Positions 1 through 26,355 of a DNA stretch of 64,000 nucleotides are shown in pieces (within the stretch, counting starts at the first letter, position 1; every line of letters begins with the position of its first letter). The stretch covers positions 55,004-119,003 of the forward strand of contig JBBDRK010000043.1 of the NCBI GenBank assembly GCA_040905465.1, given 5' to 3'. The translations under genes were made by a program, and so were the position numbers. Under the pieces are notes generated by a model. The model had not been told where the DNA came from and did no database searches. It was given only the letters and a program-made list of their open reading frames with translations. This DNA is from Trueperaceae bacterium (GTDB lineage: Bacteria > Deinococcota > Deinococci > Deinococcales > Trueperaceae).

Positions 1-293
1 CCAAAGGCGTTGCTGAGCGGCTGGTTTTCTACAAGCATGCGTTGAGGAACTCCTTGATCCCGGTCGTCACCGAGCTGGGCTTGCAGGCAGGACTCATTCT
101 CGGCGGGGTCGTGACGATCGAATTGGTCTTCTCTTACCCCGGGATCGGATTACTGGTGCTGACCGCCATCGGTCAACGCGACTATCCGATCCTCCAGTCC
201 GTTCTCCTGATCGTGAGCTTCCTGTTCTTCGTCATAAACTTCCTGGTCGATCTCTCCTACGCCTTGCTCAATCCGCGGATCACCTACTCGTGA
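1..293 (+). CDS. Peptide/nickel-type ABC transporter permease (DppB/OppB family), 5'-truncated by the window edge
   Basis: C-terminal motif RNSLIPVVT...GGVVTIELVFSYPGIG...RDYPILQ...DLSYALLNPRI; the reading frame continues upstream of the called start. Confidence 0.9.
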   Translation, partial: KGVAERLVFYKHALRNSLIPVVTELGLQAGLILGGVVTIELVFSYPGIGLLVLTAIGQRDYPILQSVLLIVSFLFFVINFLVDLSYALLNPRITYS

Positions 294-1141
294 CCCACAG
301 ACGCTGGCGACTCATGACCAAGCCCTTCAGGCAGAGCGCCGAGCTGTCTATCGGCACGTTCATGCTCGTAGGGCTTGCCGCGCTGTTCCTGGTAGGCCCG
401 TCTCTGGCACCCTATCCGCCATCGCGCATGGGCGTGGGACCTCCGTTCGCGCCGGCGTTCGAGAGTGGACACCTGTTGGGCACCGACGAGCTCGGGAGGG
501 ACGTCCTGTCGCGGGTCGTGCACGGCACGCGCTACTCGCTCCTGGTCACCCTCGCGTCGGCGGTCCTCGCCACGGTGGTAGGCGGCTTCCTCGGGATGCT
601 CTCAGGGTACTACTCGGGTTGGCTGGACATCGGGGTCATGCGCCTGGCAGACCTGCTGCTGTCGTTCCCCGGGCTCCTGTTGGCGATCGTGATCGTAGCC
701 ATAATGGGACCCGGCATCACCAACACCGCGATCGTGATCGGCGCAGTGTACGCTCCTCGCGTCGCCCGCATCAGCCGTGGTGCCGTGTTGGCGGCGAAGG
801 AGAATGACTACGTTACCGCCGCCACCGCCCTCGGCGTGCGCTCGCTGAGGGTCCTCATGCGGCACATCCTTCCCAACATCCTGCCCACGGTCGCAATCTA
901 TATGAGCCTGCTCCTTGCATACGGGCTCCTCTTCGAAGCCTCGCTGTCGTTCCTGGGCCTGGGCGTGCAGCCGCCGTTGCCTTCATGGGGCGGCATGCTG
1001 CGCTCTGCCCGCACGTTCATCCAGATCGCCCCCGGCCTTTCGATCTGGCCCGGTTTGGCGATTCTGTATGCGGTGCTGACCTTTTTCTTCCTTTCCGAAG
1101 GCCTTCGTGCCGTTCTGGACCCGAGGCTTCGCGATCGGTGA
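290..1141 (+). CDS. Peptide/nickel-type ABC transporter permease (DppC/OppC family)
   Basis: HLLGTDELGRDVLSR, EAA-like loop DYVTAATALG, RHILPN, EASLSFLGLGVQPPLPSWG; GTGA overlap with the upstream permease. Confidence 0.93.
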   Translation: MTHRRWRLMTKPFRQSAELSIGTFMLVGLAALFLVGPSLAPYPPSRMGVGPPFAPAFESGHLLGTDELGRDVLSRVVHGTRYSLLVTLASAVLATVVGGFLGMLSGYYSGWLDIGVMRLADLLLSFPGLLLAIVIVAIMGPGITNTAIVIGAVYAPRVARISRGAVLAAKENDYVTAATALGVRSLRVLMRHILPNILPTVAIYMSLLLAYGLLFEASLSFLGLGVQPPLPSWGGMLRSARTFIQIAPGLSIWPGLAILYAVLTFFFLSEGLRAVLDPRLRDR

Positions 1142-1184
1142 GAGCGACTCGGTCTACTCGTAACCCTGAACCGGAGGAGTCCGA

Positions 1185-2717
1185 ATGAACGTATGGGTTC
1201 TCTCGCTCGATATAGGCACCACCTCTGTGAAGGCGGCGGCCGTTACGCTCGATGGGCAGTCGCTCGCTTCAAGGACCTCCCCGTACCGCACCCACCGGCC
1301 GCGCCCGAACGTAGTCGAGCATGATCCGAACGACTGGTGGGCGGCGACCCGAAAGGCCTGTGCCGAGCTGTTCGGCGCCTCCGGTGTCGAGCCGTCGGAC
1401 CTGGTCGCCGTCGGGCTGAGCGGGATGGCGGCCACGCATGTGCTGCTTGGAGCCGACGGTGGCCTGATGGGTCCCGCCATCATCTGGCAGGACACCCGGG
1501 CAACGCGTGAAGCAGCTCGGTTGAATGAGCAACTTGGCGAAGATGGGATTCGCGCCGCACTCGGGTCCGGCATCGGCATGACGGCCTCGATGCAGGGCGC
1601 CCGCATGCTGTGGCTGCACGAAAATGCGCCCGAACTCCTGGCTGGAACGCGCCACATCCTGGGCTCGAAGGATTACCTTCTCTACCTGCTCACAGGGGAG
1701 CTGGCCACCGATAGGACCTCGTGCAGTGGCTTGTGCCATATTCTTACCGGGGAGTTGCATGCGGCGATGGCGAGCGCGACCGGCGTCGATGCAAGCCTCC
1801 TTCCGCCACGGCTGGACCCGACAACCGTCGGAGGTCGTGTCACAGCGGGGGCGTCTCGCGCAACGGGCATTCCCGAGGGGACACCGGTTGCGGTGGGAAT
1901 GATCGACTCCTGGTGCAATATCCTTGGCGCCGCCGTCACCGATCCCGGCGACGCGTTCGATACCGCCGGCACGGCGGAGGTCGTAGGTGTGGCGGCTGCC
2001 GCCAACTCCAGGCTGGCCCAGACGTCCGAGCGCCAGTTCCTCACCGAGGTGGCGCTGTCGTACGGTGTCACCCAGTGCGGAACGGACGCATTGACCTGGT
2101 ACGGGGAGGTTTTTCCTGAGCATGGTGCCGATGGCGCCCAGCTCGGTGAGGATTCGCTCTATCGTCATCTGGATGGCCTGGCGGACTCGGCTGCCCCCGG
2201 AGCCGACGGACTGATCTTCCTCCCATACCTGCAGGGGGAACGGGCCCCCTTCTCGGACTCCCGCGTACGGGCCGGGTTCCACGGGGTTCACCGGGGTCAC
2301 CGCCGTCCCGATTTCGTCCGTTCTGTGCTCGAGGGAGTCGCTTTCAGCGTGCGTCATGTCCTGGAGGCGCACGAGGAGCTCGGTGAGGTCCAGGCAAGTC
2401 AGGTAGTGGTGACCAGTGGCGGATCGAAGAGCCGGCTGTGGAACCAGATCAAGGCGGACGTGGTGGGCCGGCCGTTCGCCAGCCTCGAAGTCAGCGACGC
2501 CGGGTCGGTCGGTGCCGCTATACTCGGCGCGGTTGCCGTCGGACGGTATTCGATTACGGAGGGGGTAGAGCGAATGGTCCGTATTGCCACCGTGTCCGAG
2601 CCCCAGCCGGGGCTTCGCGACCGATACGACGAACTCTACGGGTTGTATCTGCAGCTCGGCACGACGTTGCGAGACGTCCATCATCGGATCGCCGACTATC
2701 AGGCACGGGAAGGGTGA
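1185..2717 (+). CDS. FGGY-family carbohydrate kinase (xylulokinase-like)
   Basis: DIGTTSVK, IIWQDTR, KDYL, PYLQGERAP, RSVLEGVAF, WNQIKADV; SD GGAGG upstream. Confidence 0.9.
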   Translation: MNVWVLSLDIGTTSVKAAAVTLDGQSLASRTSPYRTHRPRPNVVEHDPNDWWAATRKACAELFGASGVEPSDLVAVGLSGMAATHVLLGADGGLMGPAIIWQDTRATREAARLNEQLGEDGIRAALGSGIGMTASMQGARMLWLHENAPELLAGTRHILGSKDYLLYLLTGELATDRTSCSGLCHILTGELHAAMASATGVDASLLPPRLDPTTVGGRVTAGASRATGIPEGTPVAVGMIDSWCNILGAAVTDPGDAFDTAGTAEVVGVAAAANSRLAQTSERQFLTEVALSYGVTQCGTDALTWYGEVFPEHGADGAQLGEDSLYRHLDGLADSAAPGADGLIFLPYLQGERAPFSDSRVRAGFHGVHRGHRRPDFVRSVLEGVAFSVRHVLEAHEELGEVQASQVVVTSGGSKSRLWNQIKADVVGRPFASLEVSDAGSVGAAILGAVAVGRYSITEGVERMVRIATVSEPQPGLRDRYDELYGLYLQLGTTLRDVHHRIADYQAREG

Positions 2718-2792
2718 AGCGGTGCTAAAACTCGAAGCCGGCACATCTTGCCCTCCAATCGACGCGGCACATGCACTGTCTGGGGGAGGCTC

Positions 2793-3491
2793 ATGGCCAG
2801 GCTAGCCGCGTCGCTTCTCGCTGCCGACCCCGGGCGGCTGGCAGAGGCAACGATAGCCGCCGACGAGTTCGGTATACCCGTATTGCACCTCGATGCCGTC
2901 GACGGCCACTTCGCCAGGTGGATAGCCTTTGGACCTGATACGGTCGCCGCCCTGCGCCCGTTGTTCAAGGGCTTCTTCGATGTGCACCTGATGCTCATGC
3001 AGCCGGAGCGGCACATCGAGCGCTATGCCGAGGCCGGAGCGGACGGGATGACGGTTCACCTCGACGCTACCCTTCACCATCATCGGCACCTCGGTTCGAT
3101 CCGCAAGCTCGGCTGCGAAGCGGGCGTGGCTATCAGTCCCGGCACCCCGATCGAAGCCGCCCTGGAGCTGTTCCAGCTCGAGTCGGTCGATCGCCTGCTC
3201 ATCATGAGTGTCAATCCCGGATTCGCAGCGGCACCGTTTCTGGAGAATCTGTTGCGGAAGGTCGACCGTGCCAGACGGTTACGGGACGAAAACGGGTGGC
3301 ACTTTCAGATATCGGTCGATGGCGGGATGAACATTCAAAACGTCGGGCCGGTCGTCGATGCCGGGGCCGACGTTATAGTCAGCGGCAGCGGCCTCTACTC
3401 CGGTCCGTCGTTCGCAGAGAGTGCCAGGGCCCTGATGGATGCCCTCGAGCAGCGGTTTGATGAAGACGGTCGGCGCGATCAGGCGGTATAA
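2793..3491 (+). CDS. Ribulose-phosphate 3-epimerase family protein (Rpe/AlsE/SgcE-like)
   Basis: ASLLAAD, HLDAVDGHF, DVHLM, MSVNPGF, VDGG, VSGS; ATG 2793 preceded by GGGAGG. Confidence 0.88.
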   Translation: MARLAASLLAADPGRLAEATIAADEFGIPVLHLDAVDGHFARWIAFGPDTVAALRPLFKGFFDVHLMLMQPERHIERYAEAGADGMTVHLDATLHHHRHLGSIRKLGCEAGVAISPGTPIEAALELFQLESVDRLLIMSVNPGFAAAPFLENLLRKVDRARRLRDENGWHFQISVDGGMNIQNVGPVVDAGADVIVSGSGLYSGPSFAESARALMDALEQRFDEDGRRDQAV

Positions 3492-4273
3492 CCGCCGTCG
3501 ACGGCCAGGATGGCTCCGGTAGTGTATCCGGCGTCGTCACAGGCAAAGTAGGCGATGGCCGCTGCGATCTCCTGCGGTGTCCCCAGTCTGCCGGCGGGCC
3601 GCGTCGCATAGCGTGCCAGAGCGGCCTGCGGATCGGGGGTGAGCGCCACCGCGTTCAGAACCATGGGCGTACGCGTCGTTCCAGGGCAGACGCAATTCAC
3701 CCGCACGCCGTCATCGGCCAGATCGAGTGCCATGCAGCGCGTGAGCTCGACCACGGCCGCCTTGGCTGCACAGTATCCCGCCAGCCCTCGTATTCCTTTC
3801 AGGCCCGCCTCCGAAGAGACGTTTACGATGGCGCCGCGGCCCTGCCGCTTCATGATCCGGGCCCCTTCACGGGCGCAGTAGAACGTCCCGGTGAGGTTGA
3901 CAGCTATCAGCTCGTTCCACACGTCGCTGGACGTCTCGTCTGCAGCGCCGCGCGTCAGCAGCCCGGCCGAGTTCACGAGCACCGTAGGAGAACCCAATCG
4001 CGACTCCACTTCGGCAAAGGCGTTCTCGACGCTGCCGTCGTCGGTCACGTCGCAGCGAACCCACTCACCCTGCGGAGCATCGCTCGGCAGTCGTCGCAGA
4101 ACTTTGCGTGCCGCCTTCTCGTCGCGGCTGAGTATCGCCACTCTGGCACCGGACGAAGCGAGCAGTTCGGCGGTGGCCGCGCCTATACCGCTCGAGCCGC
4201 CGACCACCACTGCTACATGGCCCGCGAAGTCGTAGCGTATTGAAGCCCGAGCCGTTCCTTGCGATTCCGTCAT
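3479..4273 (-). CDS. SDR-family oxidoreductase
   Basis: GGSSGIG, NSAG, NVSS, YCAAK, RVNCVCPG, VDGGYT; start moved to the second ATG behind a GGAGG SD. Confidence 0.9.
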   Translation of the reverse strand: MTESQGTARASIRYDFAGHVAVVVGGSSGIGAATAELLASSGARVAILSRDEKAARKVLRRLPSDAPQGEWVRCDVTDDGSVENAFAEVESRLGSPTVLVNSAGLLTRGAADETSSDVWNELIAVNLTGTFYCAREGARIMKRQGRGAIVNVSSEAGLKGIRGLAGYCAAKAAVVELTRCMALDLADDGVRVNCVCPGTTRTPMVLNAVALTPDPQAALARYATRPAGRLGTPQEIAAAIAYFACDDAGYTTGAILAVDGGYTA

Positions 4274-4299
4274 GAGCAAACCTCCGCCGTCCACGGCGC

Positions 4300-5415
4300 C
4301 TAGCGGCGAGAAAAGTCGAAACCGGAGTCAATACCCCCGATGGCGGATGCCAGAAGCTCGATCAGGCCATCGAGGTCGGCAAGGTCCGTGGTTTCGATCG
4401 GGGTATGCGCGTAGCGCCGAGGGGTTCCGACATCTATACAGGCGACGCCTTCCCCCACGAGCTGTACGTATGCGGCGTCCGTGAGTCCCCCGAACCCTGC
4501 ATTGCGTTGGAGCGGGACACCGGTTGCTTTGGCCGTACCCTCGATCAGACGAACCAGTGCCGGGTGCGGCAGTAGTCCGTTTAGTGTGCCCCTACCGTGG
4601 AAGTTGTAAAGCGACATGGTTGGCCCTTCGCCCAACCTCACATGACTCATTCCATAGAGATCAGGGGTGTCCGCGGCCGCTCCCCCATCGACGCAGATCG
4701 CGATGTCTGGACGAAGCGCATTGGCCGCGGGCTGTGCGCCCCTGAGGTTGAATTCCTCCTGCACGGTGGCGACCACATGGACGGTTGCAGCCGGTTTTTT
4801 GACATGCAACTCCCGAAGGACCTCGAGGATTACCAGGCAGCCGCTACGGTTGTCGACGGCCGTGCCACTCACCCGGTTCTTTCCCAACCATTGGGCGTGA
4901 CCCACGTAGGTGACGGGATCTCCGATCTGCACCCCCATCTCGCGCACTTCTTCGGCACTCGTCGCCCCGAGGTCGAGGAACAACTCGGCTAGCGGCGTAA
5001 CACGCAGCTTCTCTTCCGCCGGGGTTACGTGATGGGCCTTCACGGCGATGACTGCGGGGACGTCAGTGCCGTCGCTGGTAGAGACGACCACGCGCAGCGC
5101 GGGAAGGACCTTCTCCGGAATGCCTCCGAGACGGTAGACGCGCACGAACCCGTCGTCTTCGATCTTCCGCACGATGAACCCGAGCGAGTCCATGTGGGCG
5201 AAGAGCATCACCGTGGGAGCGGCAGGATCGCTGCCGTTCACCGTGGCGATGACGTTCCCTAGTCGGTCTTCACGGACCTCATCGGCGAACGGTTGCATGT
5301 TGTCCGCCATGAACGACGCCACTCTTTGTTCGTGTCCGGCGAGCCCCTGCAGGCGCATGAGATCGAACAGCAGCGTGCTGCGCCTATCCCTCTGGTCCGG
5401 TTGATTACTATCCAT
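4300..5415 (-). CDS. M42-family metallohydrolase, SgcX/FrvX-like (paralog 1)
   Basis: AHMD, DNR, VQEE, CVD, RYAH metal ligands; FHGRGTLNGL insertion typical of SgcX. Confidence 0.88.
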   Translation of the reverse strand: MDSNQPDQRDRRSTLLFDLMRLQGLAGHEQRVASFMADNMQPFADEVREDRLGNVIATVNGSDPAAPTVMLFAHMDSLGFIVRKIEDDGFVRVYRLGGIPEKVLPALRVVVSTSDGTDVPAVIAVKAHHVTPAEEKLRVTPLAELFLDLGATSAEEVREMGVQIGDPVTYVGHAQWLGKNRVSGTAVDNRSGCLVILEVLRELHVKKPAATVHVVATVQEEFNLRGAQPAANALRPDIAICVDGGAAADTPDLYGMSHVRLGEGPTMSLYNFHGRGTLNGLLPHPALVRLIEGTAKATGVPLQRNAGFGGLTDAAYVQLVGEGVACIDVGTPRRYAHTPIETTDLADLDGLIELLASAIGGIDSGFDFSRR

Positions 5416-5471: not shown

Positions 5472-6203
5472 CTATCCGGTCCGCCTCATCAGGCTGAAGG
5501 TTTGGCCGGAGGGGCCGGGGGCTGGGCAGCTAGCCAGGTACAGCGCCAGAGGCACGACATCGTCGGGGTTTTTGATCCACTCCGAGCCAACGTTCATGAC
5601 CGAACCCGAGCCCTTCTCGGCGACGGTCATCTCGGTCCGTACCGGACCGGGAATGAGCTCGTTGACGGATATACCGTACGGAGCGAGTTCGTCGGACAAT
5701 AGTCTGGTGAGTGCCCAAAGTGCAGCCTTCGAGCAGATGTATGACGAGTTGCTGTTGCGGGCATGGTGTCCCGTTCCCGATCCGATCGTCACAACGCGCC
5801 CTCCTGAACTCGACTTCAGGTATGGGATCGCGAGCCGAATACAGTGATACGCCCCAGTGAGGTTGACAGCGATGGTCTGCTGCCAAGCCAGGGGATCGCT
5901 CTCTTCTACCGGACGCTGGTCTACGTTGATCCCCGCGTTCACTACCAGCAGGTCGAGTCGGGCCGCGTCGCCCGTTAGCTCTCTGATCGCTCGCTCCACT
6001 GAGCCGGGGTCGGTGACGTCGGCCTCCAATGGAAGCGCCTTGCCGCCGGCGCTCTCTATGGCAGCACTGGTCGTCCGGATGTCGTCGCGGTTGCGGCCAA
6101 GGCACCCGACGAGCGCGCCTTCCGCGCCATAGGCGCGTGCAATTGCCGCCCCTATGCCGCGACTGGCCCCGGTAACGAGTGCGATCTTCCCTTGTAGTCG
6201 CAT
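5472..6203 (-). CDS. SDR-family oxidoreductase
   Basis: TGASRGIG, VNAG, YICSK, VNELIPGPVRT. Confidence 0.9.
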   Translation of the reverse strand: MRLQGKIALVTGASRGIGAAIARAYGAEGALVGCLGRNRDDIRTTSAAIESAGGKALPLEADVTDPGSVERAIRELTGDAARLDLLVVNAGINVDQRPVEESDPLAWQQTIAVNLTGAYHCIRLAIPYLKSSSGGRVVTIGSGTGHHARNSNSSYICSKAALWALTRLLSDELAPYGISVNELIPGPVRTEMTVAEKGSGSVMNVGSEWIKNPDDVVPLALYLASCPAPGPSGQTFSLMRRTG

Positions 6204-6250: not shown

Positions 6251-7036
6251 TTACCAGGACGTATACCCGCCGTCTATCACGAGATTTGTGCCTGTTGCAT
6301 ATGAGGAAGCGTCGGAAGCCAGATAGAGTACTGCCCGGGCGACTTCGAGAGGCTCACCGACCCTCCCCATGGGGGTCATGCTGACCCACGTTTCCGCCCA
6401 GGCAGGATTGGCCATACCCCGCTTGGTCAAGGCGGTGCCGATATAGCCTGGCGACACCGAGTTCACCCGCACGTTGCGCCCAGCCCACTCTGTCGCCAAC
6501 GACTTGGTAAGCATGATGACCCCGGCCTTCGAAACGTTGTAATGGACCTGCGGCTGCGGCTTGTTGGCAACGAGGCCGGACATGGACGCGATATTCACGA
6601 TGACTCCGGCTTCCTTCCGGAGCATGTGCCGCCCTACCTCGCGGCACATCCAGAAGGCACCGTTGAGGTTCACGTCGAGCACATCGCGCCACTCGGTATC
6701 CGCGATCTCTTCCGCGGCGGTGTTGTATACGATCCCGGCATTGTTGACCAGCACGTCGATCCGGGAGAAGTCGTCGACCACATTGGCGACCACGTCACGA
6801 ACCTGTTCCGGATCACGCACGTCCAATTCGTACGATGCTGCCTTCGCCCCGGTTCGACCCAGCTCCTCGGCCGCCGTTCGGCCGGCTTTGCCGTCGAACT
6901 CGGCGATGGCGACGTCGGCTCCCGCAGCAGCCAGAAGGTCGGCGATCGCCCGGCCGATTCCCCGACCAGCGCCGGTTATCAGTGCTGTACGCCCCGCCAG
7001 GCTCGTATGCGGTTCGCTGCTCGGTCTCCCATTCAC
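6251..7036 (-). CDS. SDR-family oxidoreductase (polyol dehydrogenase/ketose reductase-like)
   Basis: TGAGRGIG, NNAG, NIASMSG, ANKPQPQVHYNVSK, IDGGYTSW. Confidence 0.88.
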   Translation of the reverse strand: MNGRPSSEPHTSLAGRTALITGAGRGIGRAIADLLAAAGADVAIAEFDGKAGRTAAEELGRTGAKAASYELDVRDPEQVRDVVANVVDDFSRIDVLVNNAGIVYNTAAEEIADTEWRDVLDVNLNGAFWMCREVGRHMLRKEAGVIVNIASMSGLVANKPQPQVHYNVSKAGVIMLTKSLATEWAGRNVRVNSVSPGYIGTALTKRGMANPAWAETWVSMTPMGRVGEPLEVARAVLYLASDASSYATGTNLVIDGGYTSW

Positions 7037-8577: not shown

Positions 8578-9618
8578 CTAGCCTTCGGAAGTAATCGCGA
8601 CCTTCAGGCCGATCTGATTGCCTGCAGCTTCGAATGCCTCGACAGTCTTCGCGAGTGGAAAGGTGTGCGTTATCACCTGACGGCCGTCCACCTTACCCTC
8701 TGCCAGCATCTTCAGGGCACGGCGCGAATGTTCGACACCGGCGTTGGAGGTTCCGAATACGAAGATCTGGCGATAGTGGATCTTGTTGGTGTCGAGTGCG
8801 ACCTCTTTGGTGCCGAAAGGGAGACCGGCAAAGAATGAGACCGTGCCACCGGCTCGTACCAGATCGAGAGACTGTTGCTGGGCCACTGGAACCGGGGCAG
8901 CGACGATCACCACGTCTGCTCCCAGGCCGTCGGTAGCAGCAAGCACCTCGGCCACGACATCCTGTCTCGACGCATTGATGAGTGTGGCCGAGAGATCTTG
9001 TGGAACCATACCGAGTCGCTCGTCCGAGACATCGACCACCAACAGCGGCTGTACTCTCCGAGCGCTGCACACTTGTGCATGCATGATGCCGATCGGGCCC
9101 GCCCCGATCACCACTACGGAATCGCCTGGCTTCAGGTCCAGGTGACCGTGGGTGTTGAGGATGCATGCAAGGGGCTCTGTAAGCGCAGCCTCCTCCAGGC
9201 TGAGGTGCGGAGGCACATGATGCAGGTTGCCGTTTGAAACCATCGACTCCGGAATGCGAACTGATTCGGCGAAGCCGCCCTTTCCGCCGAGGCCCTGGTA
9301 GTTCGTGCAGAGCCATTCCTGGTCTGTGTTGCAGTAGTGACACTCGCCGCAGCCTCTACCGGAGGGAGACAGGGCAACCCGGTCCCCTACCTCGAACCCC
9401 TCTACCTCGGCGCCTACCTCACTTACGATACCGGCGACTTCGTGGCCCAATACCGCGGGAAGCTTGATCTTCCGGTGACCATACTTGAAGACCTTCAGGT
9501 CCGTCCCGCAGATGGTGCAGACTTTGACTTGTACTATCACGTCGCCGGGTCCGCACACGGGCTCCGGCAGATCCTGCATCTCCAGTTGACCTACACTCGA
9601 TAGCATTGCCGCTTTCAT
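8578..9618 (-). CDS. Zn-dependent (MDR) alcohol/polyol dehydrogenase
   Basis: ICGTD, GHE, structural Zn CGECHYC...C, TEPLAC, GAGPIG. Confidence 0.92.
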   Translation of the reverse strand: MKAAMLSSVGQLEMQDLPEPVCGPGDVIVQVKVCTICGTDLKVFKYGHRKIKLPAVLGHEVAGIVSEVGAEVEGFEVGDRVALSPSGRGCGECHYCNTDQEWLCTNYQGLGGKGGFAESVRIPESMVSNGNLHHVPPHLSLEEAALTEPLACILNTHGHLDLKPGDSVVVIGAGPIGIMHAQVCSARRVQPLLVVDVSDERLGMVPQDLSATLINASRQDVVAEVLAATDGLGADVVIVAAPVPVAQQQSLDLVRAGGTVSFFAGLPFGTKEVALDTNKIHYRQIFVFGTSNAGVEHSRRALKMLAEGKVDGRQVITHTFPLAKTVEAFEAAGNQIGLKVAITSEG

Positions 9619-11476: not shown

Positions 11477-11487
11477 ATTTACTCCGG

Positions 11488-16364: not shown

Positions 16365-16406
16365 TGCAACAGCTCTGCCTTCCAAGCCAACCGGAAGGAT
16401 CCTCCA

Positions 16407-17309: not shown

Positions 17310-17468
17310 AGGTTTACCCGGTTCGCCGCCGAGCACCCGGACGGTACCCGGCATTCTCGGAGTGGACGCAGTTCGCGCGAATAAGTCGCAAGTCGGGGAG
17401 CAGGCCGCCGATTGCCTGCTCCAGCCGGCCTGCGAGTCGCGGCGACGCGAGATGGAAAGGGGAAACGG

Positions 17469-19058: not shown

Positions 19059-20327
19059 ATGAGTGATGCTCGGCATCGTTCGCGTGTCGTAGCCGGCTCA
19101 CCATTTTTCTACGGTTGGATGATCCTCGCCACTGCGACCGCCAGCATGTTCATGACGCTGCCCGGCCAGACCGCCGGAATAGCGGTGTTCCTGGAACAGA
19201 TCATCGCCGACTTGACGCTGCAGCGCACCACGGTATCTCTGCTCTACCTGATCGGAACGCTCATTGCGGCCTTTACGCTGACCTTGGTGGGATGGGCGAT
19301 CGACCGGTACGGTCCGCGCAGAGCCGCCAGCGGAATCGTGATCCTGTTCATTTGCGGTTGCCTGGTCATGAGCTCGGCAACGGGGCCGTTGTCGCTCCTG
19401 CTGGGGCTCATCCTGGTCCGCGCATTCGGCCAGGGGGCCCTGCCGCTGGTGAGCATGCATAGCGTGAACCTCTGGTTCATTCGGAACCGCGGAATGGCGG
19501 TCGGGATTGCAGGACTGGGAATCGCCCTCGGCACTGCGGCTTTCCCTCCGCTGATCGAGCTGATGATGGGGAACTACGGCTGGCGAACGACCTACGCCAT
19601 GCTCGGCGGTCTAATTGCATTGGTCGTGCTCCCGCTGGTGGTGACATTCTTCCGAGACCATCCAGAAAGCTACGGCCTGCTACCCGACGGGGACACGGTC
19701 ACGTCCAGACGGGAAAATGAGCACCGAGCCGACGACACAGGTAGCGAGCCGGCTCTTACGCTGCCGCAGGCACAACGAACCGCAACGTACTGGCTGTTCG
19801 TTCTGGGCGGGGTGGCGGTGTCCTGTTTCGGCACTGCACTCGTATTCCATCACTACGCGATCATGACGGCGAACGGGGTAGATAGAACAGTCGCGGCCCT
19901 GATGTTCGTTCCCTTCGGGATCGCCATGGCGACGTCCAACCTGCTTACGGGCCTCGCCATGGATCGTCTGGCGCCACGTTACCTGTTGAGCTTCAATCTC
20001 GCACTTCTGGTGACCGCCCTGGCTTGCGCCAGCAGGGTAGACAGCCCGGCTTTGGTAATAGCCTACGGAGTAGGAATCGGTGCCCTACAGGGAATGCACG
20101 GAGCCTTGCAGGCGGGCGTGTACGCCCACTACTTTGGCAGGCGCCATCTCGGTGTCGTCAGGGGATTCGCGAGTACGCTGTCGGTCGGCGGCTCGGCCGC
20201 CGGGCCGTTTCTCTTCGCCCTCGGCTTCGATCTGTTCGACGACCAAGTCACTACCTTGGTGGTGGCCACCGCGGTGCCGCTGGTGATCGCAGTTACGGCC
20301 CCATTCCTGAAACCGGTGCGAGCGTGA
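19059..20327 (+). CDS. MFS transporter
   Basis: About 12 hydrophobic segments; motif A GWAIDRYGPRR; FFYGW N-terminus; YFGRRHLG. Confidence 0.9.
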   Translation: MSDARHRSRVVAGSPFFYGWMILATATASMFMTLPGQTAGIAVFLEQIIADLTLQRTTVSLLYLIGTLIAAFTLTLVGWAIDRYGPRRAASGIVILFICGCLVMSSATGPLSLLLGLILVRAFGQGALPLVSMHSVNLWFIRNRGMAVGIAGLGIALGTAAFPPLIELMMGNYGWRTTYAMLGGLIALVVLPLVVTFFRDHPESYGLLPDGDTVTSRRENEHRADDTGSEPALTLPQAQRTATYWLFVLGGVAVSCFGTALVFHHYAIMTANGVDRTVAALMFVPFGIAMATSNLLTGLAMDRLAPRYLLSFNLALLVTALACASRVDSPALVIAYGVGIGALQGMHGALQAGVYAHYFGRRHLGVVRGFASTLSVGGSAAGPFLFALGFDLFDDQVTTLVVATAVPLVIAVTAPFLKPVRA

Positions 20328-20417
20328 GCGAACGCAGAGCTGCACTCGAGGAAGTTACGCCGGCCGGGAGCAGACGGCTTCCGAAAACGAAGGTCGAACT
20401 GGTTGAGAGGGAGGCAT

Positions 20418-21302
20418 ATGAGCACAGAAGGTAGATCGTTGCGCCTCGCCATAGTCGCCGACATTCATCACGGTCCGGATGCCCCCCCGAAGCTGGGGAG
20501 CAGGGCACTTGGCCTGTTGAATGAGGTGATCGACGAAATAAACGAGAGAGCTCCTGACCTGGTGGTGGATCTTGGAGATCGCATCAACGATGTGGGCAAG
20601 GAGGATGACGAGCGGCTGTTGGCCGAGGTGGCGGATGCCTTCTCTCGTCTGCGGGTGCCGGTTCGCCACCTCTTGGGTAATCACGACGTCGCACGGCTCT
20701 CCATAGATACCACCGAATCCCTGCTGGGTGCGACGCTCGACCACCAGAGCCTGGAGCTGAACGACTGGCACCTGGTCTTTTGGCAGGTCAACAGTGCGTT
20801 TCGCGGTGGCGACGGGCTTCAGATAGACGAGAGCGACTTTCTCTGGCTACAAGAGGAGCTCGCCGTAACCGATCGACCCACTGTGGTATTCACGCATGCG
20901 CCCCTGGACAACGGGCCGATGGTGGGGAACTACTACTTCGAACCCATGCCTCCTCAATTCTCGGGTTACGCCAACGCAGAGCGCGCTCGCCGGTTGATGG
21001 AGAGGAGCACGACGAGCGTTGCCGTCGCCGGCCACGTACATTGGAACTCAGCCAGGACGATTCACGGCATCCACTACCTGACCGTCCAGTCGCTGTCCGA
21101 GTGCTTCACCACCTATCCAGAGCCGGCCCGGGCTTGGGCCGAGCTGACGTTGGGCGAGCGGGTCTCGCTCGACGTTCACGGCACGGATGAGATGCGGGTG
21201 CAGTTGACGCCGCGGCGGGGCAGTAGCCAGTGGCTCACCAGAAACACGAGACCTAGCGAGTGGGTAACCGTCGGAACCAGCCGCCGGAGGGGCAACGGAT
21301 AG
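20418..21302 (+). CDS. Calcineurin-like metallophosphoesterase
   Basis: ADIHHG, LGDRIND, LGNHD, FTHAP, AGHVH; GGAGG SD before ATG 20418. Confidence 0.88.
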   Translation: MSTEGRSLRLAIVADIHHGPDAPPKLGSRALGLLNEVIDEINERAPDLVVDLGDRINDVGKEDDERLLAEVADAFSRLRVPVRHLLGNHDVARLSIDTTESLLGATLDHQSLELNDWHLVFWQVNSAFRGGDGLQIDESDFLWLQEELAVTDRPTVVFTHAPLDNGPMVGNYYFEPMPPQFSGYANAERARRLMERSTTSVAVAGHVHWNSARTIHGIHYLTVQSLSECFTTYPEPARAWAELTLGERVSLDVHGTDEMRVQLTPRRGSSQWLTRNTRPSEWVTVGTSRRRGNG

Positions 21303-21377: not shown

Positions 21378-22769
21378 TCAGTTTTGAGCATTTCGGTCGA
21401 GTTCGGCCAGGGCAGCGATGATTTCGAGGGTGGAATGGACCCCCAACTCGAAATGATCCAGCCGGAGATTCTCATTCGGACCGTGATTGTTCTGATCGTG
21501 GTGGCCGTAGCTCAGGACGATTGGCTTGGCCTCGAGTGCAGTTAGGAACCCCGCGGCGGGCAGGCTTCCGCCCAGTGACGGATAGACCAGAGGCTCGCTT
21601 TGCCAGGCCCTTGCCAATGAAGCGAGTACGGCGGTAGTTGCGTGATCGCTCGGCTCTATCCGATACGGAGTCATTCGGGCCAGATAGTTCACGGTGGCTT
21701 CCGGCTCGAGCCGCCGAATCTCGCTTGCCAGGAGTTCAGCTATTTCGGTGGGATCCTGATCGGGCACCAGCCTGGCATCGAGTTTCAGGACAGCCTTGGA
21801 CGGGATGACCGACTTCATCCCCGTTCTGGTATAGCCCGAAGCGATTCCACTCACGTTCAGATTCGGCTCGAACATGATCCGCCGCCAGTATTCCAGGTTA
21901 TCGGAGATGGACGGTTCGAGCGCCCGAACCCCGATGGTTCGCCTGAATCCGGCTGCGGAGAATGGGATGGCGCGGGCCAACTCGACTTCGGATCGTGACG
22001 GCGCCCGCACTCTGTCGTAAAAACCCGGGGCGTTTACGGTTCGGTCGGTTCCGATGAGGTTGGAGATGAGGCGAGAGAGCGCAACGGCGGGATTCGGCGT
22101 TACTCCGCCGTAGGTGCCGGAATGCTGGTCGGTCTCGGCGTTACGTAGAGAGACTTCGAGGTATACCAGGCCACGGGCGCCGAAGACGGCAACGGGCCTG
22201 CCGCTCGGATGACCCGGGCCGTCGGCGATCAGAACGAGGTCCGCGGCGAGCCGCTCCCGCTGGGACTGGAGAAAGCTGTCGATGTTCGGTGAGCCTGTCT
22301 CTTCTTCACCCTCGAGCAGGACAGTTACATTCACCGGAATGTGAGCATCGGCGGCAAGGAGGGACGCGATCGCTGCGATATGGGCGTAGAATTGCCCCTT
22401 GTTGTCGCTGGCCCCCCTTGCATAGATCCTCCCGTCGCGAACGGTGGGGGCGAACGGGTCCGACTGCCACTCCGGCTCGTCAGCCGGCTGGACGTCGTAG
22501 TGACCGTACAGCAGCAGGGTGAACCGGTTCCCAGGACGCTCGTACTCTCCGATGACCATCGGAGCGCCGTCGGTAGCGATGGTCGATGCACGGAGGCCGG
22601 CTTTCTCGAGCAGGGTCCGCACCAGTTCGGCGCACTCGGGTATTCCCTCCCCGGTCGTGCTCACGCTCCTCTGAGCCAACAGGGCGAAGAGTTGCTCCAG
22701 GAAGGATTCGCGATTGCTGGAGAAGTACTCCGATGCTGCTGCCGTTTGGCTTCGGCTACTGTCTGTCAT
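21378..22769 (-). CDS. M20/M25/M40-family metallopeptidase (dipeptidase/deacylase-like)
   Basis: YGHYDVQP, ARGASDNKG, EGEEETGS, DQHSG, HGPNE. Confidence 0.9.
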   Translation of the reverse strand: MTDSSRSQTAAASEYFSSNRESFLEQLFALLAQRSVSTTGEGIPECAELVRTLLEKAGLRASTIATDGAPMVIGEYERPGNRFTLLLYGHYDVQPADEPEWQSDPFAPTVRDGRIYARGASDNKGQFYAHIAAIASLLAADAHIPVNVTVLLEGEEETGSPNIDSFLQSQRERLAADLVLIADGPGHPSGRPVAVFGARGLVYLEVSLRNAETDQHSGTYGGVTPNPAVALSRLISNLIGTDRTVNAPGFYDRVRAPSRSEVELARAIPFSAAGFRRTIGVRALEPSISDNLEYWRRIMFEPNLNVSGIASGYTRTGMKSVIPSKAVLKLDARLVPDQDPTEIAELLASEIRRLEPEATVNYLARMTPYRIEPSDHATTAVLASLARAWQSEPLVYPSLGGSLPAAGFLTALEAKPIVLSYGHHDQNNHGPNENLRLDHFELGVHSTLEIIAALAELDRNAQN

Positions 22770-22963
22770 GATTCGATCGCTCTCTCGATCATCGGGCGCA
22801 GGACCGTACACGCGTCCGTACCGGGTGTCCTGATGCGATAGTGACGGAGTTCGACTGTCGGCTTCGGCGAATCGTTTCCGGCCGCTCTACTCGCGAACGG
22901 AATCCCCCTTTCAAAGATGGTCATAGCGTAGGCGTGGGCGGCTCTCCTGTCCCGATCTCGAGA

Positions 22964-23626
22964 TCACCTGAGCAATTCTGTGACCTCGTCGGCCACCGTC
23001 CTGGCCAGTACCGCGTGAGCTCCCGCATCGAGGTGAACGCCGTCGTGTTCGCTCGCCTTGACGTGCTGTGCAACGTCCAGGAAGTCGCACCCGTGCTCCA
23101 GGGCGACTTCTCGAAGGCTTGCTCCCAACTGGCGGGACTTCTTCTCGGCACCGTCGAAGAACTCCGCGAACTCGCTGAGCCTACCTATCAGCGGGGGAGA
23201 GAGTAACAGTACGCCAGGACTATCCTGCGCGGGACCGCTCGCACTGGAGAGGATGACTCCGATAAGCCGGGAGACCCCGAGTGCGATCTCCTTCGGTGAA
23301 AGTGAGAAGCGCGCCTTCAGGTCGTTGGTGCCTAACATCAGCAGCACCAAGTGAAGGGGAGCGTGCGAATCGAGGCACGGCAGCAGGTAGTCGATCCCTT
23401 TGCGCCCCGGTTGCAGGGGATCTTCGAATACTGTCGTCCTGCTGTTGAGCCCCTCCTCCACTACATGGACCTTGCTGCCTAGCAACTCCTGCAGGACACC
23501 GGTCCACCGAATCCGTCGCGGGAAGCGTTCCTTGGTATTCGGATCGAAGCCCCAAGTGTTGGAGTCGCCATAGCACAAGACGGTGCGTTCGAACTCGACG
23601 CTCTCGCTCCCTCCTGCTGCTGTCAC
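22964..23626 (-). CDS. SGNH/GDSL hydrolase (arylesterase/acyltransferase-like)
   Basis: GDSNTWG, EEGLNSRTT, LGTNDLK, DGVH blocks. Confidence 0.92.
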   Translation of the reverse strand: MTAAGGSESVEFERTVLCYGDSNTWGFDPNTKERFPRRIRWTGVLQELLGSKVHVVEEGLNSRTTVFEDPLQPGRKGIDYLLPCLDSHAPLHLVLLMLGTNDLKARFSLSPKEIALGVSRLIGVILSSASGPAQDSPGVLLLSPPLIGRLSEFAEFFDGAEKKSRQLGASLREVALEHGCDFLDVAQHVKASEHDGVHLDAGAHAVLARTVADEVTELLR

Positions 23627-23641
23627 TTCACCCGATCCGAA

Positions 23642-24745
23642 CTAACGGCTGAAGTCGAAATCGGCCGACACCTTTGGAATGAACTCGGAAAGCAGGTCGA
23701 TGAGCCCTTGCACGTCACCGAGGTGGCACATCTCCGCCGGGGAGTGGGAGTAGCGCATCGAGAAGCTCAGGTCTATCGTAGGGGTGCCGCCGTTTTCCAG
23801 CTGAACGTACGAGCCTTCGGTAAGCCCGCCGAAGAAAGCGCTTCGTTGCAACACGAGTCCGTCCTCCTCGGCACTGCGGCTTATGGCGCGAACCAATGCC
23901 GGGTGGGGGACGAGACCGTTGAGGGTGCCGCGGCCGTGAAAGGAGTAAAGGTTCATCGCCGGGCCCCCGCCCATCCTCACGTCGTTGCTGCCCGCAAGGT
24001 CAGGGGTATCGCCAGGCACGGTGCCGTCTACACAGAGTGCAATGGCCGGCCGGAGTGCATGGGCTACCGGCGCGGCGCCGCGCAGGTTGAACTCTTCCTG
24101 AACGGTGGCAACGATGTGAGTCGTGGCTTTGGGTCGGTTCTTGGCTAGCCGCCTCAGGGTCTCGAGGACCGCCAGGCAACCGCCACGGTTGTCGATGAAG
24201 GTCGCCGTCACCGTGTCGTTCGCGAGCCGCTGGAATTGACCGGTGTAGGTAATCGGGTCACCCGTCTGGATACCTGCTTGCTGAACTTCTGCCTTGCTCC
24301 GCGCACCTATGTCGATGAACAGTTCCTGGAGGGGAGTAACCTTGTACTTCTCTTCGGGCGGTGTGACGTGGTGGGCCTTTATCCCTATAATGCCTGGAAT
24401 GTCCTTGCCTCGGCTGTTGGTGATGGTGATCTTGGTCGCCGGGAGTACTTTTTCCGGTATGCCCCCCAACCGATAAACTCTGATGAAGCCGTCGTCCTCG
24501 ATCTTCCGGACGATGAATCCCAGCGAGTCCATGTGGGCGGAGACCATGATACTTGGCGCATCGGCGTCGCTACCGTTTACGGTAGCTATTACGTTGCCTA
24601 GCGTATCCGTGTAGACGTTGTCCGCATGGGGCCTCATCTTCTCGCTCATGAACGAAGCTACGCGCTGCTCGTGACCAGCGAGTCCGGGCAGCGTAGCCAG
24701 GGTCTGGAAATCGGTGAGTGCCTCGTCGCTTATGCTCTTGCTCAT
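23642..24745 (-). CDS. sgcX: M42-family metallohydrolase, SgcX-like (paralog 2)
   Basis: AHMD, DNR, VQEE, CVD, RYSH; FHGRGTLNGLVPHPAL; directly downstream of a BtpA/SgcQ gene. Confidence 0.8.
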   Translation of the reverse strand: MSKSISDEALTDFQTLATLPGLAGHEQRVASFMSEKMRPHADNVYTDTLGNVIATVNGSDADAPSIMVSAHMDSLGFIVRKIEDDGFIRVYRLGGIPEKVLPATKITITNSRGKDIPGIIGIKAHHVTPPEEKYKVTPLQELFIDIGARSKAEVQQAGIQTGDPITYTGQFQRLANDTVTATFIDNRGGCLAVLETLRRLAKNRPKATTHIVATVQEEFNLRGAAPVAHALRPAIALCVDGTVPGDTPDLAGSNDVRMGGGPAMNLYSFHGRGTLNGLVPHPALVRAISRSAEEDGLVLQRSAFFGGLTEGSYVQLENGGTPTIDLSFSMRYSHSPAEMCHLGDVQGLIDLLSEFIPKVSADFDFSR

Positions 24746-24775
24746 TCTATCGTCTCCAGTCCGGAAGCCACGGCC

Positions 24776-25585
24776 TCATCGGATGCTTTCGACTGCGTCC
24801 ATGAATCTGCTGACCCTGTCGGGATCCACCGGATTCCAGGTGTTTCCATCCCGCTTGAAGCTCGTGCCCACGATGGCGGCATCGGCTACTTCCATGATTG
24901 CGTTGACGTTTTCGACTCGAACGCCGGTATTGGCGATGACGGGTATCTCCGGAATCGCCTCCTTGACTTCGCGGATATCTGACAGGTCCACGGCTTGCCC
25001 GGTCATCGGACCTGAGACGCAGATGCCATCGGCGAGACTCGCAAAGACCGCGCTTTTCGCTTTAGCCGCATTCGAGCGCGTGCCGATAGGCGAGGCGAAC
25101 TCGGCGTTGATGTTGTACAGGAGCAGGCAATCCGCGCCGAGGTTGGTGCGCAGGCGGACGGCGGTAGCGGCGTCGGGTTGCCACAGGCCCATGTCGGCGT
25201 CGTAGACGCCGGTAAAGACCTCCCGCACGAACCGCGCCCCGGTGGCGTGCGCCAAGGCGACTGATGCCACTGGGTCCCATAGGTAGTTGACGCCGAAGGG
25301 CACACGCACATGTTCCACCGCGCGGGTAACGATTGCGGTCATTGCCGCCAGGCTTTCGGGGGTCGAGCGGGTCAAGTACGGCCGGTCGCCTTCGTTGCCG
25401 AACATGATCGCATCGACACCGCCATTTTGCAGAGCATCGATGTCCTGCACGACCGAGTCGAGGATCCGACCGATACTGCCGCTCTTGTCGTAGAGGGCGC
25501 TTCCGGGCAGGGGAAGCAGATGGGCCATGGCAATGATCGGCTTTCTCTTCCCGAATAGCTTTACGAAATCGTTCAAGACGTTCAC
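24776..25585 (-). CDS. sgcQ: BtpA/SgcQ-family TIM-barrel protein
   Basis: KPIIAMAHLLPLPG, GVDAIMFGNEGDRPY, PFGVNYLWD, GARFVRE, CVSGPMTG, ANTGV, IVGTSFK. Confidence 0.88.
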   Translation of the reverse strand: MNVLNDFVKLFGKRKPIIAMAHLLPLPGSALYDKSGSIGRILDSVVQDIDALQNGGVDAIMFGNEGDRPYLTRSTPESLAAMTAIVTRAVEHVRVPFGVNYLWDPVASVALAHATGARFVREVFTGVYDADMGLWQPDAATAVRLRTNLGADCLLLYNINAEFASPIGTRSNAAKAKSAVFASLADGICVSGPMTGQAVDLSDIREVKEAIPEIPVIANTGVRVENVNAIMEVADAAIVGTSFKRDGNTWNPVDPDRVSRFMDAVESIR

Positions 25586-26355
25586 TCTCCGTTTGCGCGC
25601 GTAAGTTTGATGCCGGCGTCGGTGTAGATGCGTGCCACTTGAGGTTCGAGTCCGGCGTCCGTGATTATCTCGTCGAAGTCATCCAGGTCGCCTACCTTGG
25701 CCAGGCTCCTCTTGCCAAACTTCGTGTGGTCAGCGAGAAGCACTGCCCGTTGTCCACAATCCCTCATCAGCCGCTTGACCGGCACTTCTTCCAATGTCGC
25801 GTTCGTCAGCCCCGCCTCGAGGCTCACGGCGTCGGCACCGATGAAGCTGCTGTTCGCATTGAGATTTGCGAGCGACTCTTCTACGGCGTGTCCGATCACC
25901 GAGTAGATAGAGGGTCGCACGCTCCCTCCCAGGATGATCACCCCGAAGCCGGGCGTGTCGCACAACTCCAGTGCGATCTTAAGATCACTGGTGATTACGG
26001 TAATGTCGCGTTTTCCCTTTAGTTCGCGTGCCAATGCCAGGGTCGTGCTTCCGGAGTCGAGAACGATTACTTCCCCATCCGACACCGACCGGGCCGCAAC
26101 TCGGGCGATTGCTCGCTTCTGTTCGAGTTGCCTCCCCGCTTTCTCCGAATGCAATGGTTCGAAGGCCGTACTGATATGGGGGAGAACGGCGCCGCCGTGC
26201 GTTCGCTTTATATGCCCCTGCGTCTCGAGCAGGTGCAGGTCACGGCGTATCGTGGCCGGGGAAACGTCGAGGAGCCTGGCAAGATAGGCGACATCAGCCC
26301 CGCCGTTTTCCGTAAGGAGTTCGAGCAGTCTCCGTTTCCTCTGCTCGGGCAACAT
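25582..26355 (-). CDS. DeoR/GlpR-family transcriptional regulator (paralog 2, SgcR-like)
   Basis: VSPATIRRDLHLLE...THGGA; LDSGSTT; ADHTKFG; 4-nt overlap with sgcQ. Confidence 0.93.
   Translation of the reverse strand: MLPEQRKRRLLELLTENGGADVAYLARLLDVSPATIRRDLHLLETQGHIKRTHGGAVLPHISTAFEPLHSEKAGRQLEQKRAIARVAARSVSDGEVIVLDSGSTTLALARELKGKRDITVITSDLKIALELCDTPGFGVIILGGSVRPSIYSVIGHAVEESLANLNANSSFIGADAVSLEAGLTNATLEEVPVKRLMRDCGQRAVLLADHTKFGKRSLAKVGDLDDFDEIITDAGLEPQVARIYTDAGIKLTRANGE

Follow-up and report, generated by a model that had tools for sequence, protein, structure and literature searches.

The sgcXBCQAER operon of Escherichia coli K-12 combines genes for an M42-family metallopeptidase homologue (SgcX), a BtpA-family protein (SgcQ), a ribulose-phosphate 3-epimerase (Rpe)-family protein (SgcE) and a DeoR-type regulator (SgcR) with the IIA, IIB and IIC components of a Gat-type phosphotransferase system (PTS). 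As reported in the available part of a 2026 PNAS atlas (PMC13343008), sgcABCEQX is strongly induced on slow-growth carbon sources that contain nitrogen, deletion of sgc causes no defect on any of 190 Biolog substrates, and the substrate and biochemistry of the operon are still to be established. That part of the atlas bears out a statement made in a preliminary description of the DNA studied here, namely that SgcQ and SgcX have no settled function. A search of open-access literature and bioRxiv found no paper on the enzymatic function of the BtpA/SgcQ family; matches for the name BtpA concern an unrelated Brucella TIR effector. Here, we describe an sgc-like gene set at the left end of a 64,000-nucleotide (nt) stretch of a Trueperaceae (Deinococcota) chromosome, hereafter the window (assembly GCA_040905465.1, contig JBBDRK010000043.1, positions 55,004 to 119,003 of the forward strand).

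The preliminary description had read positions 1-26355 as a PTS-free sgc-like island, possibly encoding one complete pathway, with an Rpe-like epimerase. All 23 genes that it listed are present in our open reading frame (ORF) listing and are borne out by Pfam and NCBIfam scans, and the idea of a PTS-free sgc-like system stands; a single 26-kb pathway is at the least unsupported, and the epimerase is no orthologue of SgcE. The balance of the evidence tips towards a genuine carbohydrate-catabolic island of lower G+C content that is a mosaic, not one pathway. Its core module is a PTS-free counterpart of the sgc set: DeoR2-BtpA-M42b, together with an Opp-type ATP-binding cassette (ABC) importer, FGGY-family kinase 1 (FGGY1) and Rpe, and with a short-chain dehydrogenase/reductase (SDR1) and M42a. 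Beside the core lie module 2, a kinase-dehydrogenase-aldolase route that is separable and would serve a polyol or ketose, and a group of lineage-specific additions. The mosaic reading rests on the absence of these additions from related loci, on Rubrobacter plasmids that carry the families of module 2 but neither BtpA nor M42, and on the island's pair of DeoR regulators and promoter-like site upstream of the aldolase gene.

Core module and its conservation

The core genes and an M20 gene that we regard as their frequent companion are as follows:

3-290, plus strand: 3' end of Opp/Dpp-type permease B (tblastn of the permease B of a related locus, L005, 87.5% identity over residues 222-317)
290-1141, plus strand: permease C of an Opp/Dpp-type ABC system (Pfam BPD_transp_1, 100.8 bits)
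1185-2717, plus strand: FGGY kinase 1 (FGGY_N and FGGY_C)
2748-3491, plus strand: ribulose-phosphate 3-epimerase family, Rpe (Pfam, 183.5 bits)
3479-4294, minus strand: SDR1 (adh_short_C2, 218 bits)
4300-5415, minus strand: SgcX-like metallopeptidase M42a (Pfam M42, 264.2 bits)
21378-22811, minus strand: M20 dipeptidase-like hydrolase (Peptidase_M20 and M20_dimer)
23642-24745, minus strand: M42b, the paralogue of M42a and likewise SgcX-like (Pfam, 271.5 bits)
24776-25585, minus strand: BtpA/SgcQ family protein (Pfam, 267 bits; TIGR00259, 270.6 bits)
25582-26355, minus strand: SgcR-like regulator DeoR2 (Pfam)

The deoR2 and btpA genes overlap by 4 nt and btpA is separated from M42b by 30 nt; an SGNH hydrolase gene begins 15 nt downstream of M42b, and the M20 gene follows after a further 152 nt. 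Since bases 3-290 encode the final 96 residues of permease B, the island extends past the left edge of the window.

Four families are shared with sgc: BtpA (45% identity to SgcQ over 262 residues), M42 (39% identity to SgcX for M42a and 38% for M42b), DeoR (DeoR2, 35% identity to SgcR) and Rpe-family epimerases. In place of the Gat-type PTS, however, the window has Opp-type ABC cassettes and FGGY kinases, and no PTS domain was detected among the 25 genes of positions 1-28474 or the 42 ORFs of the remaining window. The window also differs in its additional SDR and M20 genes, its two M42 copies and its organization: sgc is one operon, whereas the window genes occupy two or more transcription units. 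The epimerase does not behave as a counterpart of SgcE. It is only 27% identical to SgcE, falls far below the cut-off of NF005944 (79.5 bits against 376) and passes that of NF004076 (187.8 bits against 165), so that it is better described as an ordinary Rpe-subfamily protein.

To place the island among its relatives, a BtpA alignment was scanned against species-representative genomes and the best 80 of 575 confirmed loci were kept, 56 of which span at least 15 kb; the 25 window proteins were then compared with these 80 loci by tblastn (coverage of at least 60%, E ≤ 1e-10). FGGY kinases were matched in 71-72 loci, SDRs in 58-61 and DeoR regulators in 28. Matches were far fewer for M42 (3 loci), Rpe (2), Zn-dependent alcohol/polyol dehydrogenase (Zn-ADH; 2) and DhnA-type aldolase (1), and the sulfatase, major facilitator superfamily (MFS) transporter, phosphoesterase and SGNH hydrolase were matched in none. 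The window M20 had fragment matches only, all in L005.

The three loci with an M42 match are instructive. In the Trueperaceae locus L007, a single operon reads DeoR-BtpA-SBP5-permB-permC-FGGY-M42-Rpe, where SBP denotes a substrate-binding protein and perm a permease. In L005, from a Trueperaceae metagenome-assembled genome (MAG), 14 island genes recur together at 50-84% identity, arranged as SBP5-permB-permC-FGGY1-Rpe / SDR1-DeoR2-M42a / BtpA-M20, adjoining ZnADH-DhnA-DeoR1 / FGGY2. L006, from Acidobacteriota, combines BtpA with a ribose-type CUT2 ABC system, M42 and FGGY. Because of these arrangements, we treat the sgc-like core as a conserved unit, and the recurrence of 14 genes in L005 indicates co-localization beyond chance. 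The expectation that the gene set would be conserved elsewhere thus holds for the L007 operon and the L005 genes and fails for the sulfatase, SGNH, phosphoesterase, MFS, SDR2 and SDR3 genes. A DNA search with the deoR-btpA-M42 segment against plasmids gave no match.

Individual core proteins follow the same pattern. FGGY1 is 76% identical to its L005 copy and 51% to the L007 kinase, which lies inside the BtpA operon, and we propose it as the phosphorylating step of the sgc-like core. Permease C is 84% and 57% identical to the L005 and L007 copies, and Rpe is syntenic in both (72% and 50%). SDR1 is 69% identical to an L005 protein whose gene shares an operon with DeoR2 and M42a, and DeoR2 is 54-58% identical to the BtpA-adjacent DeoR proteins of L003, L005, L007 and L010. 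That ABC import and FGGY phosphorylation replace the PTS, as had been suggested for the window, fits both the single operon of L007 and the wider association of BtpA with kinase or PTS genes described below.

For the type-B SBP of L005, the nearest matches are 5u4o, YliB/GsiB, Lmo0135, AgaA and DppA, which is compatible with an amino-acid-containing ligand. Neither ABC cassette of the window includes an ATPase gene. SBP genes with two permease genes and no ATPase gene also occur in L007 (2828-6261) and on two Deinococcus plasmids (L097, 4610-7979; L099, 3420-6936), which suggests that Opp/Dpp cassettes in Deinococcota use shared ATPases encoded elsewhere. As a separate observation, the SBP of L006 (9747-10772) strongly matches PDB 5bra (E 9e-94), named by its depositors as a periplasmic binding protein 'with substrate ribose'; no literature on the function of 5BRA was found in open-access sources and bioRxiv.

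BtpA and its phosphorylating partners

The window BtpA scores well above the curated cut-offs of its family (30 bits for Pfam and 153.4 for TIGR00259), a family with 3172 representatives (50% clustering, E ≤ 0.001), and its nearest named relatives are Trueperaceae MAG proteins. A 29-row tree unites SgcQ, the window protein and every FGGY-linked BtpA (94/85) and sets this group off from a PfkB-linked clade in which five of six rows join at 100/99. This grouping and the 45% identity confirm that the window BtpA is SgcQ-like: it shares a major clade with SgcQ but is not its sister. An 83-row tree (the 80 loci plus window, SgcQ and Thermus) places it in a 9-row Deinococcota/Acidobacteriota clade (SH-aLRT 96) with mixed contexts, M42 being present in the window, L005, L006 and L007 and a plain DeoR-BtpA-FGGY-SDR arrangement in L003, L008 and L010. 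BtpA clades mix phyla, with Acidobacteriota inside the Trueperaceae clade.

Across the family, BtpA is linked to a sugar-phosphorylating step. In 67 of the 80 loci, the start of an FGGY gene lies between -60 and +300 nt from the BtpA stop, and clustering of neighbouring ORFs, with Pfam scans of the representatives, recovered FGGY in 69 loci, SDR in 58 and DeoR in 28. Genes for CUT1-type sugar ABC systems are also common near BtpA: the SBP, the ATPase and one permease were each found in 55 loci and a second permease in 45. Annotated contexts extend this pattern, a phosphorylating partner occurring in 11 of 13: FGGY in Thermus, Rhizobium leguminosarum, Labrenzia and Paroceanicella; PfkB or ribokinase in Pantoea, Halobellus, Shinella, pRL9 and Paracoccus; and PTS in E. 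coli and Bacillus mycoides. Amidohydrolase-type genes (M42, M20, Zn hydrolase, glutamine amidotransferase, gamma-glutamyltransferase or PIG-L) are present in 7 of the 13.

Among the known systems close to the window are DeoR-BtpA-FGGY-SDR-CUT1 loci, annotated but uncharacterised, in Dongia, Bauldia, Thermus thermophilus (plasmid pHB5018c) and R. leguminosarum (pRL10); the last two carry the common set of DeoR, SDR, CUT1 ABC, BtpA and FGGY as an annotated operon. Their BtpAs are 55-73% identical to that of the window and belong to the same clade, and they share DeoR, SDR, FGGY kinase and ABC import with it. In contrast to the window, they lack M42, M20 and Rpe, their CUT1 importer has its own ATPase, and their kinase and SDR share only 30-38% identity with those of the window. 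On pRL10, BtpA-FGGY is followed by a gamma-glutamyltransferase gene (L083, 11361-12920). Genes for glutamine amidotransferase, Amidohydro_2, TauD, rhodanese and FGE-sulfatase domains lie near BtpA in 6-9 alphaproteobacterial loci (e.g. L014, L023, L057 and L067), which may represent one related clade.

PfkB-linked loci (Pantoea, Shinella, Rhizobium johnstonii pRL9 and Paracoccus aminophilus) resemble the window in combining BtpA with a sugar kinase, ABC import and an amidohydrolase-type gene, here M20, Zn hydrolase or glutamine amidotransferase. They differ from it in having BtpAs of a separate clade (29-35% identical), PfkB and not FGGY, a phosphotriesterase-like gene, TenA and LacI. These four loci (L086, L093, L094 and L095) share a conserved set of LacI, CUT2 ABC, phosphotriesterase-like, glutamine amidotransferase, PfkB and BtpA genes, with M20, Zn hydrolase or TenA depending on the locus.

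The simplest context is on B. mycoides plasmid p357 (L089, 6553-9802), where the operon consists solely of GntR, Man-type PTS IIA, BtpA, IIB, IIC and IID. Its gene content implies that BtpA alone could turn the PTS product into a usable compound. In the fructosamine systems frlABCD and gfrABCDEF, import and a kinase or Man-type PTS are followed by a single enzyme that releases sugar phosphate and amino acid, and the B. mycoides operon has the same shape. Fructosamine deglycases, however, are SIS-domain proteins and not BtpA barrels.

Structure prediction is consistent with an enzymatic role. An AlphaFold2 model of the window BtpA (18-sequence alignment) is a (βα)8 barrel with a pLDDT of 91 and a pTM of 0.90, and Foldseek matched it in the PDB to GGGPS, Rpe, TrpF, TrpA, ThiE, HisF and KDPG/KDPGal aldolases (TM 0.55-0.66, at most 19% identity). 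The folds of GGGPS, Rpe, TrpF, TrpA, ThiE, HisF and KDPG aldolase are phosphate-binding barrels, and BtpA is likewise predicted from the model to be a phosphate-binding (βα)8 barrel. Invariant residues that follow the predicted strands include H22, N64/E65/D67/R68, D104, E122 and N158/N160/E162, and further S191-G192, T195-G196, N219-T220-G221 and G240-T241/K244. A putative phosphate-binding site can be made out in the glycine-rich segments that follow strands 6-8. Class I aldolases have their Schiff-base lysine on strand 6; no invariant lysine is found on strand 6 of BtpA. A search of the ESM Atlas for look-alikes outside the BtpA family gave no usable match. Because the barrel fold coincides with linkage to a kinase or PTS, our data support the view that BtpA acts as an enzyme on a phosphorylated sugar.

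The family name suggests something quite different: that BtpA is a non-enzymatic assembly or stabilizing factor, a role put forward for the photosystem I protein of cyanobacteria from which the name derives. The window protein does match an NCBIfam model for photosystem I biogenesis, but at 186.1 bits it lies below the cut-off of 400 for that equivalog (NF045918), and the host lineage, Deinococcota, is non-photosynthetic. Tight linkage of BtpA to kinases or PTS genes inside sugar operons and a predicted enzyme-type barrel with invariant polar residues after its β-strands are also at odds with an assembly role, which we consider highly improbable.

Nine longer proteins (P0121-P0129) join BtpA with FGGY, M42, SDR or luciferase-like domains, including the forms BtpA+FGGY, BtpA+M42 and BtpA+FGGY+SDR. 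Among the six that were scanned, the three multi-domain fusions (P0124, P0125 and P0127) carry fragmentary domains, one for example covering 32-216 of 254 positions of the BtpA profile and 60-126 of 292 of the M42 profile. These three were rejected as true fusions and are attributed to read-through gene calls over adjacent genes.

M42 and M20 hydrolases

The two M42 proteins of the window are 62% identical to each other, M42a shares 76% identity with its L005 copy, and both are closer to SgcX (249-259 bits) than to FrvX (179 bits) or YpdE (147-161 bits). In a 12-row tree, they fall on one side (90/98) with SgcX and three M42s found beside BtpA elsewhere, and M42b groups with M42a and the L005 copy (81/88). 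Aligned with SgcX and 4wwv, both retain the AHMD, D-N-R, Q-E-E, V-D and H-S/T-P stretches, whose residues we take to be metal ligands. Both are below the cut-off of the named M42 equivalogs (202-213 bits against 412). A homologue of the window M20, about 50% identical to it, lies between BtpA and Zn-ADH in L005 (11385-12714), where it is split over three frames and is either a pseudogene or an assembly error.

Alternatively, the Opp-type ABC genes, the M42s and the M20 could form an ordinary peptide uptake and hydrolysis system placed among unrelated sugar and polyol genes, in which case the resemblance to sgc would be coincidental. Solved relatives of the window M42s are aminopeptidases, the L005 SBP resembles DppA and GsiB, and the closest plasmid M42s outside sgc-like sets belong to Deinococcus peptide clusters, others being in a housekeeping position in Anoxybacillus. 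On two Deinococcus plasmids (D. peraridilitoris and Deinococcus sp. KNUC1210), an Opp-type SBP and two permeases, again with no ATPase gene, are paired with an M42 36% identical to the window's in the absence of BtpA, kinase, Rpe, SDR or other sugar genes. The D. peraridilitoris cluster also contains NlpC/P60 and dipeptide epimerase genes and that of KNUC1210 a proline iminopeptidase-family hydrolase and an M14 carboxypeptidase, a context of peptide or murein-peptide use.

Against such a system, the ABC genes and M42 of L007 are interleaved with BtpA, FGGY and Rpe in one DeoR-controlled operon, the M42 of L006 is flanked by a CUT2 ABC system of the sugar type on one side and an FGGY kinase on the other, and in both E. 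coli and Salmonella a PTS operon opens with M42. M42 thus occurs in ABC, CUT2 and PTS contexts, and its pairing with BtpA therefore recurs with three or four transporter types. We find a mere peptide system unlikely and retain the sgc-like core, in which a sugar- or polyol-amino-acid conjugate is a plausible substrate of the M42-linked subset, judging from gene content.

Several observations weigh against reading the core as an sgc-like unit built around a sugar-phosphate enzyme. In the window itself, BtpA adjoins no kinase, and none of the three window kinases is an orthologue of the FGGY clade found next to BtpA elsewhere (median identity 30-34%). Nor are the 80 loci independent, as 69 of the 83 tree rows belong to one largely alphaproteobacterial clade; the 13 annotated contexts, E. 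coli and 12 plasmid contexts, were hand-picked across the identity range from 199 matching records; and two of them, Sinorhizobium fredii (interrupted by an insertion sequence) and Acidisoma, show no kinase. Searching the BtpA sequence against solved structures gave nothing below E 0.24, leaving its chemistry unconstrained, and hhalign comparisons of the BtpA profile with the window Rpe, HisA/F and DhnA were not significant (E 0.05-0.11). M42 lies beside BtpA in only 3 of the 80 loci, although M42-linked loci are probably under-sampled in the best 80 of 575. Finally, the M42s are SgcX-like by bit score and by their side of the tree, but the D. peraridilitoris M42 from a plain peptide-uptake cluster falls there as well.

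A separable kinase-dehydrogenase-aldolase module

Module 2 occupies the middle of the island:

8578-9618, minus strand: Zn-ADH, Zn-dependent alcohol/polyol dehydrogenase (ADH_N and ADH_zinc_N)
9727-10539, minus strand: DhnA-type class I aldolase (DeoC/LacD Pfam, 106 bits)
10626-10654, minus strand: promoter-like site upstream of the aldolase gene (TTGACA-17-TATAAT, 12 of 12 matches to the σ70 consensus)
10700-11476, minus strand: DeoR1 regulator (HTH_DeoR and DeoRC)
11545-13182, plus strand: FGGY kinase 2 (Pfam)
13497-17309, plus strand: Opp/Dpp-type SBP and two permeases (SBP_bac_5, 190.6 bits; two BPD_transp_1 matches)
17412-19031, plus strand: FGGY kinase 3 (Pfam)

DeoR1 (74% identity), the aldolase (83%), Zn-ADH (78%) and FGGY2 (68%) all have copies in L005, and this module lies next to the core in both the window and L005. 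We treat module 2 as separable because two Rubrobacter plasmids (L100 and L101) that have no BtpA or M42 carry the DhnA aldolase, Zn-ADH, FGGY and DeoR combination, with identities of 33-37%; their Zn-ADHs are 36% identical to that of the window. Unlike the window, the Rubrobacter clusters include transketolase, a DhaK-family kinase, RpiB and HAD phosphatases, and they have no Opp-type ABC cassette. Both are large DeoR-controlled clusters with two FGGY kinases and a glycerol-1-phosphate dehydrogenase-like gene. They look like uncharacterised polyol pathways and presumably resemble the tetritol pathways of Mycobacterium smegmatis.

All three FGGY kinases of the window score below the XylB cut-off of TIGR01312 (286, 329 and 330 bits for FGGY1, FGGY2 and FGGY3 against 380.25), and FGGY3 is the window kinase closest to BtpA-adjacent kinases (36% identity to that of Thermus and 34% to that of R. 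leguminosarum). The aldolase, whose nearest solved structure is MJ0400 (E 2.6e-31), satisfies only the broad DeoC/LacD Pfam family and lies below the cut-offs of NF005556 (155.7 bits against 241) and of LsrF, NF006081 (99.6 against 297). An lsr (AI-2) operon was rejected as an identity for these genes, kinase and aldolase scores being far under the LsrK and LsrF cut-offs.

The module-2 SBP probably starts at Met 13653, where its signal peptide begins and where its start had been placed previously. Its nearest solved relatives are 4wed, 8vdx and the agrocinopine-binding protein AccA, all weak (E 1e-22 to 1e-25). The acc operon combines an AccA-type SBP with the DeoR-type regulator AccR and with AccF/AccG, a phosphodiesterase and a phosphatase. 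The match to AccA is weak (E ~1e-22, 81-84 bits); a DeoR regulator and a metallophosphoesterase are present in the window.

Lineage-specific additions and genomic setting

We class the six remaining genes of the island as lineage-specific additions:

5472-6203, minus strand: SDR2 (Pfam)
6251-7036, minus strand: SDR3 (Pfam)
7095-8534, minus strand: Cys-type sulfatase (Pfam Sulfatase, 166.6 bits)
19059-20327, plus strand: MFS transporter (Pfam)
20403-21302, plus strand: metallophosphoesterase (Pfam)
22964-23626, minus strand: SGNH/GDSL hydrolase, putative esterase (Lipase_GDSL_2, 60.8 bits)

The sulfatase has a CAPSR motif and no signal peptide, and is a cytoplasmic enzyme of the Cys type. SDR2 and SDR3 are 31-40% identical to the SDRs of other loci.

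The preliminary description had united all four transcription units in one pathway for a substituted polyol or sugar-amino-acid conjugate, which would be desulfated, dephosphorylated, deacylated and deaminoacylated, and then oxidized, phosphorylated, epimerized and cleaved. Several features of the island are in keeping with this: its genes are contiguous with short gaps, the core adjoins module 2 both here and in L005, M42/M20-type hydrolases recur with BtpA in several clades, and the closest relatives of the type-B SBP bind glutathione, dipeptides or opines. The additions that such a pathway would need, however, did not follow the core. In addition to the four that were matched in none of the 80 loci, SDR2 and SDR3 have no orthologue, and all six are absent from L005, as is M42b. 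Moreover, the island has three kinases, a pair of regulators and, besides an MFS transporter, two ABC systems; in Rubrobacter the module-2 genes stand on their own; and close relatives of BtpA within the 9-row clade make do with FGGY and SDR. A single conjugate-stripping pathway is thus not upheld, and we assign it a low probability beside the mosaic.

A minus-strand run of DeoR1-aldolase-Zn-ADH-sulfatase-SDR3-SDR2-M42a-SDR1 extends from 11476 down to 3479 with gaps of 5-160 nt, and the plus-strand middle consists of FGGY2, a 314-nt gap, the SBP and two permeases, FGGY3, the MFS transporter and the metallophosphoesterase. The G+C content of the island is 0.618, versus 0.664 in positions 26356-64000 of the window, a difference compatible with acquisition by transfer. 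Scans for σ70-like promoters and terminators found site totals no higher than in shuffles, the single 12-of-12 site standing out, and an Rfam scan of positions 1-28000 matched no family. Directly right of the island is an rmlB-type dTDP-glucose 4,6-dehydratase gene (476 bits against a cut-off of 365); positions 26565-29866 also hold a weak GNAT-like ORF and a 458-residue ORF (28490-29866, minus strand) for which there was no Pfam match. Housekeeping genes (fab, hisA/F, fpg and murJ) lie to the right of rmlB.

Proposed metabolism and significance

Gene identities, synteny, the linkage of BtpA to a kinase or PTS and its fold class ground a working scheme for the core, in which the order of steps, the chemistry of BtpA and the substrate are conjectural. 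The substrate would be imported by the ABC system, after which any amino-acyl or peptidyl group on it might be trimmed by M42 or M20. SDR1 would then oxidize the substrate and FGGY1 phosphorylate it. BtpA may convert the resulting phosphorylated sugar by isomerization, epimerization or cleavage, and Rpe could pass the product to the pentose-phosphate pathway.

A more far-reaching version of this scheme, which we put forward as a long shot, is that BtpA/SgcQ proteins are an unrecognised class of sugar-phosphate-converting enzymes always acting directly after a kinase or PTS, and that the sgc-type subset catabolizes sugar- or polyol-amino-acid conjugates of the Amadori or opine type. Here, an SDR would oxidize a polyol conjugate and the kinase would phosphorylate it; BtpA, through epimerase or deglycase-like (reverse Amadori) chemistry, would liberate a central sugar phosphate, and the amino-acid part would be left to M42 or M20. 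Such a scheme would fit the induction of sgc on nitrogen-containing carbon sources, as the available part of PMC13343008 reports it. If true, it would provide a function for E. coli SgcQ and SgcX.

SgcQ and SgcX are part of the unexplained E. coli genome, and the most useful outcome of this analysis is that, across the family, BtpA/SgcQ is coupled to a sugar-phosphorylating step, whether FGGY, PfkB or PTS. This coupling makes the function of the family testable, since minimal operons such as the PTS and BtpA genes of B. mycoides exist alongside tractable cultured hosts: T. thermophilus with its plasmid, R. leguminosarum with pRL10, Dongia and Bauldia. In each host, the product of the kinase is a candidate substrate of BtpA, and the adjacent SBP may report the starting compound.

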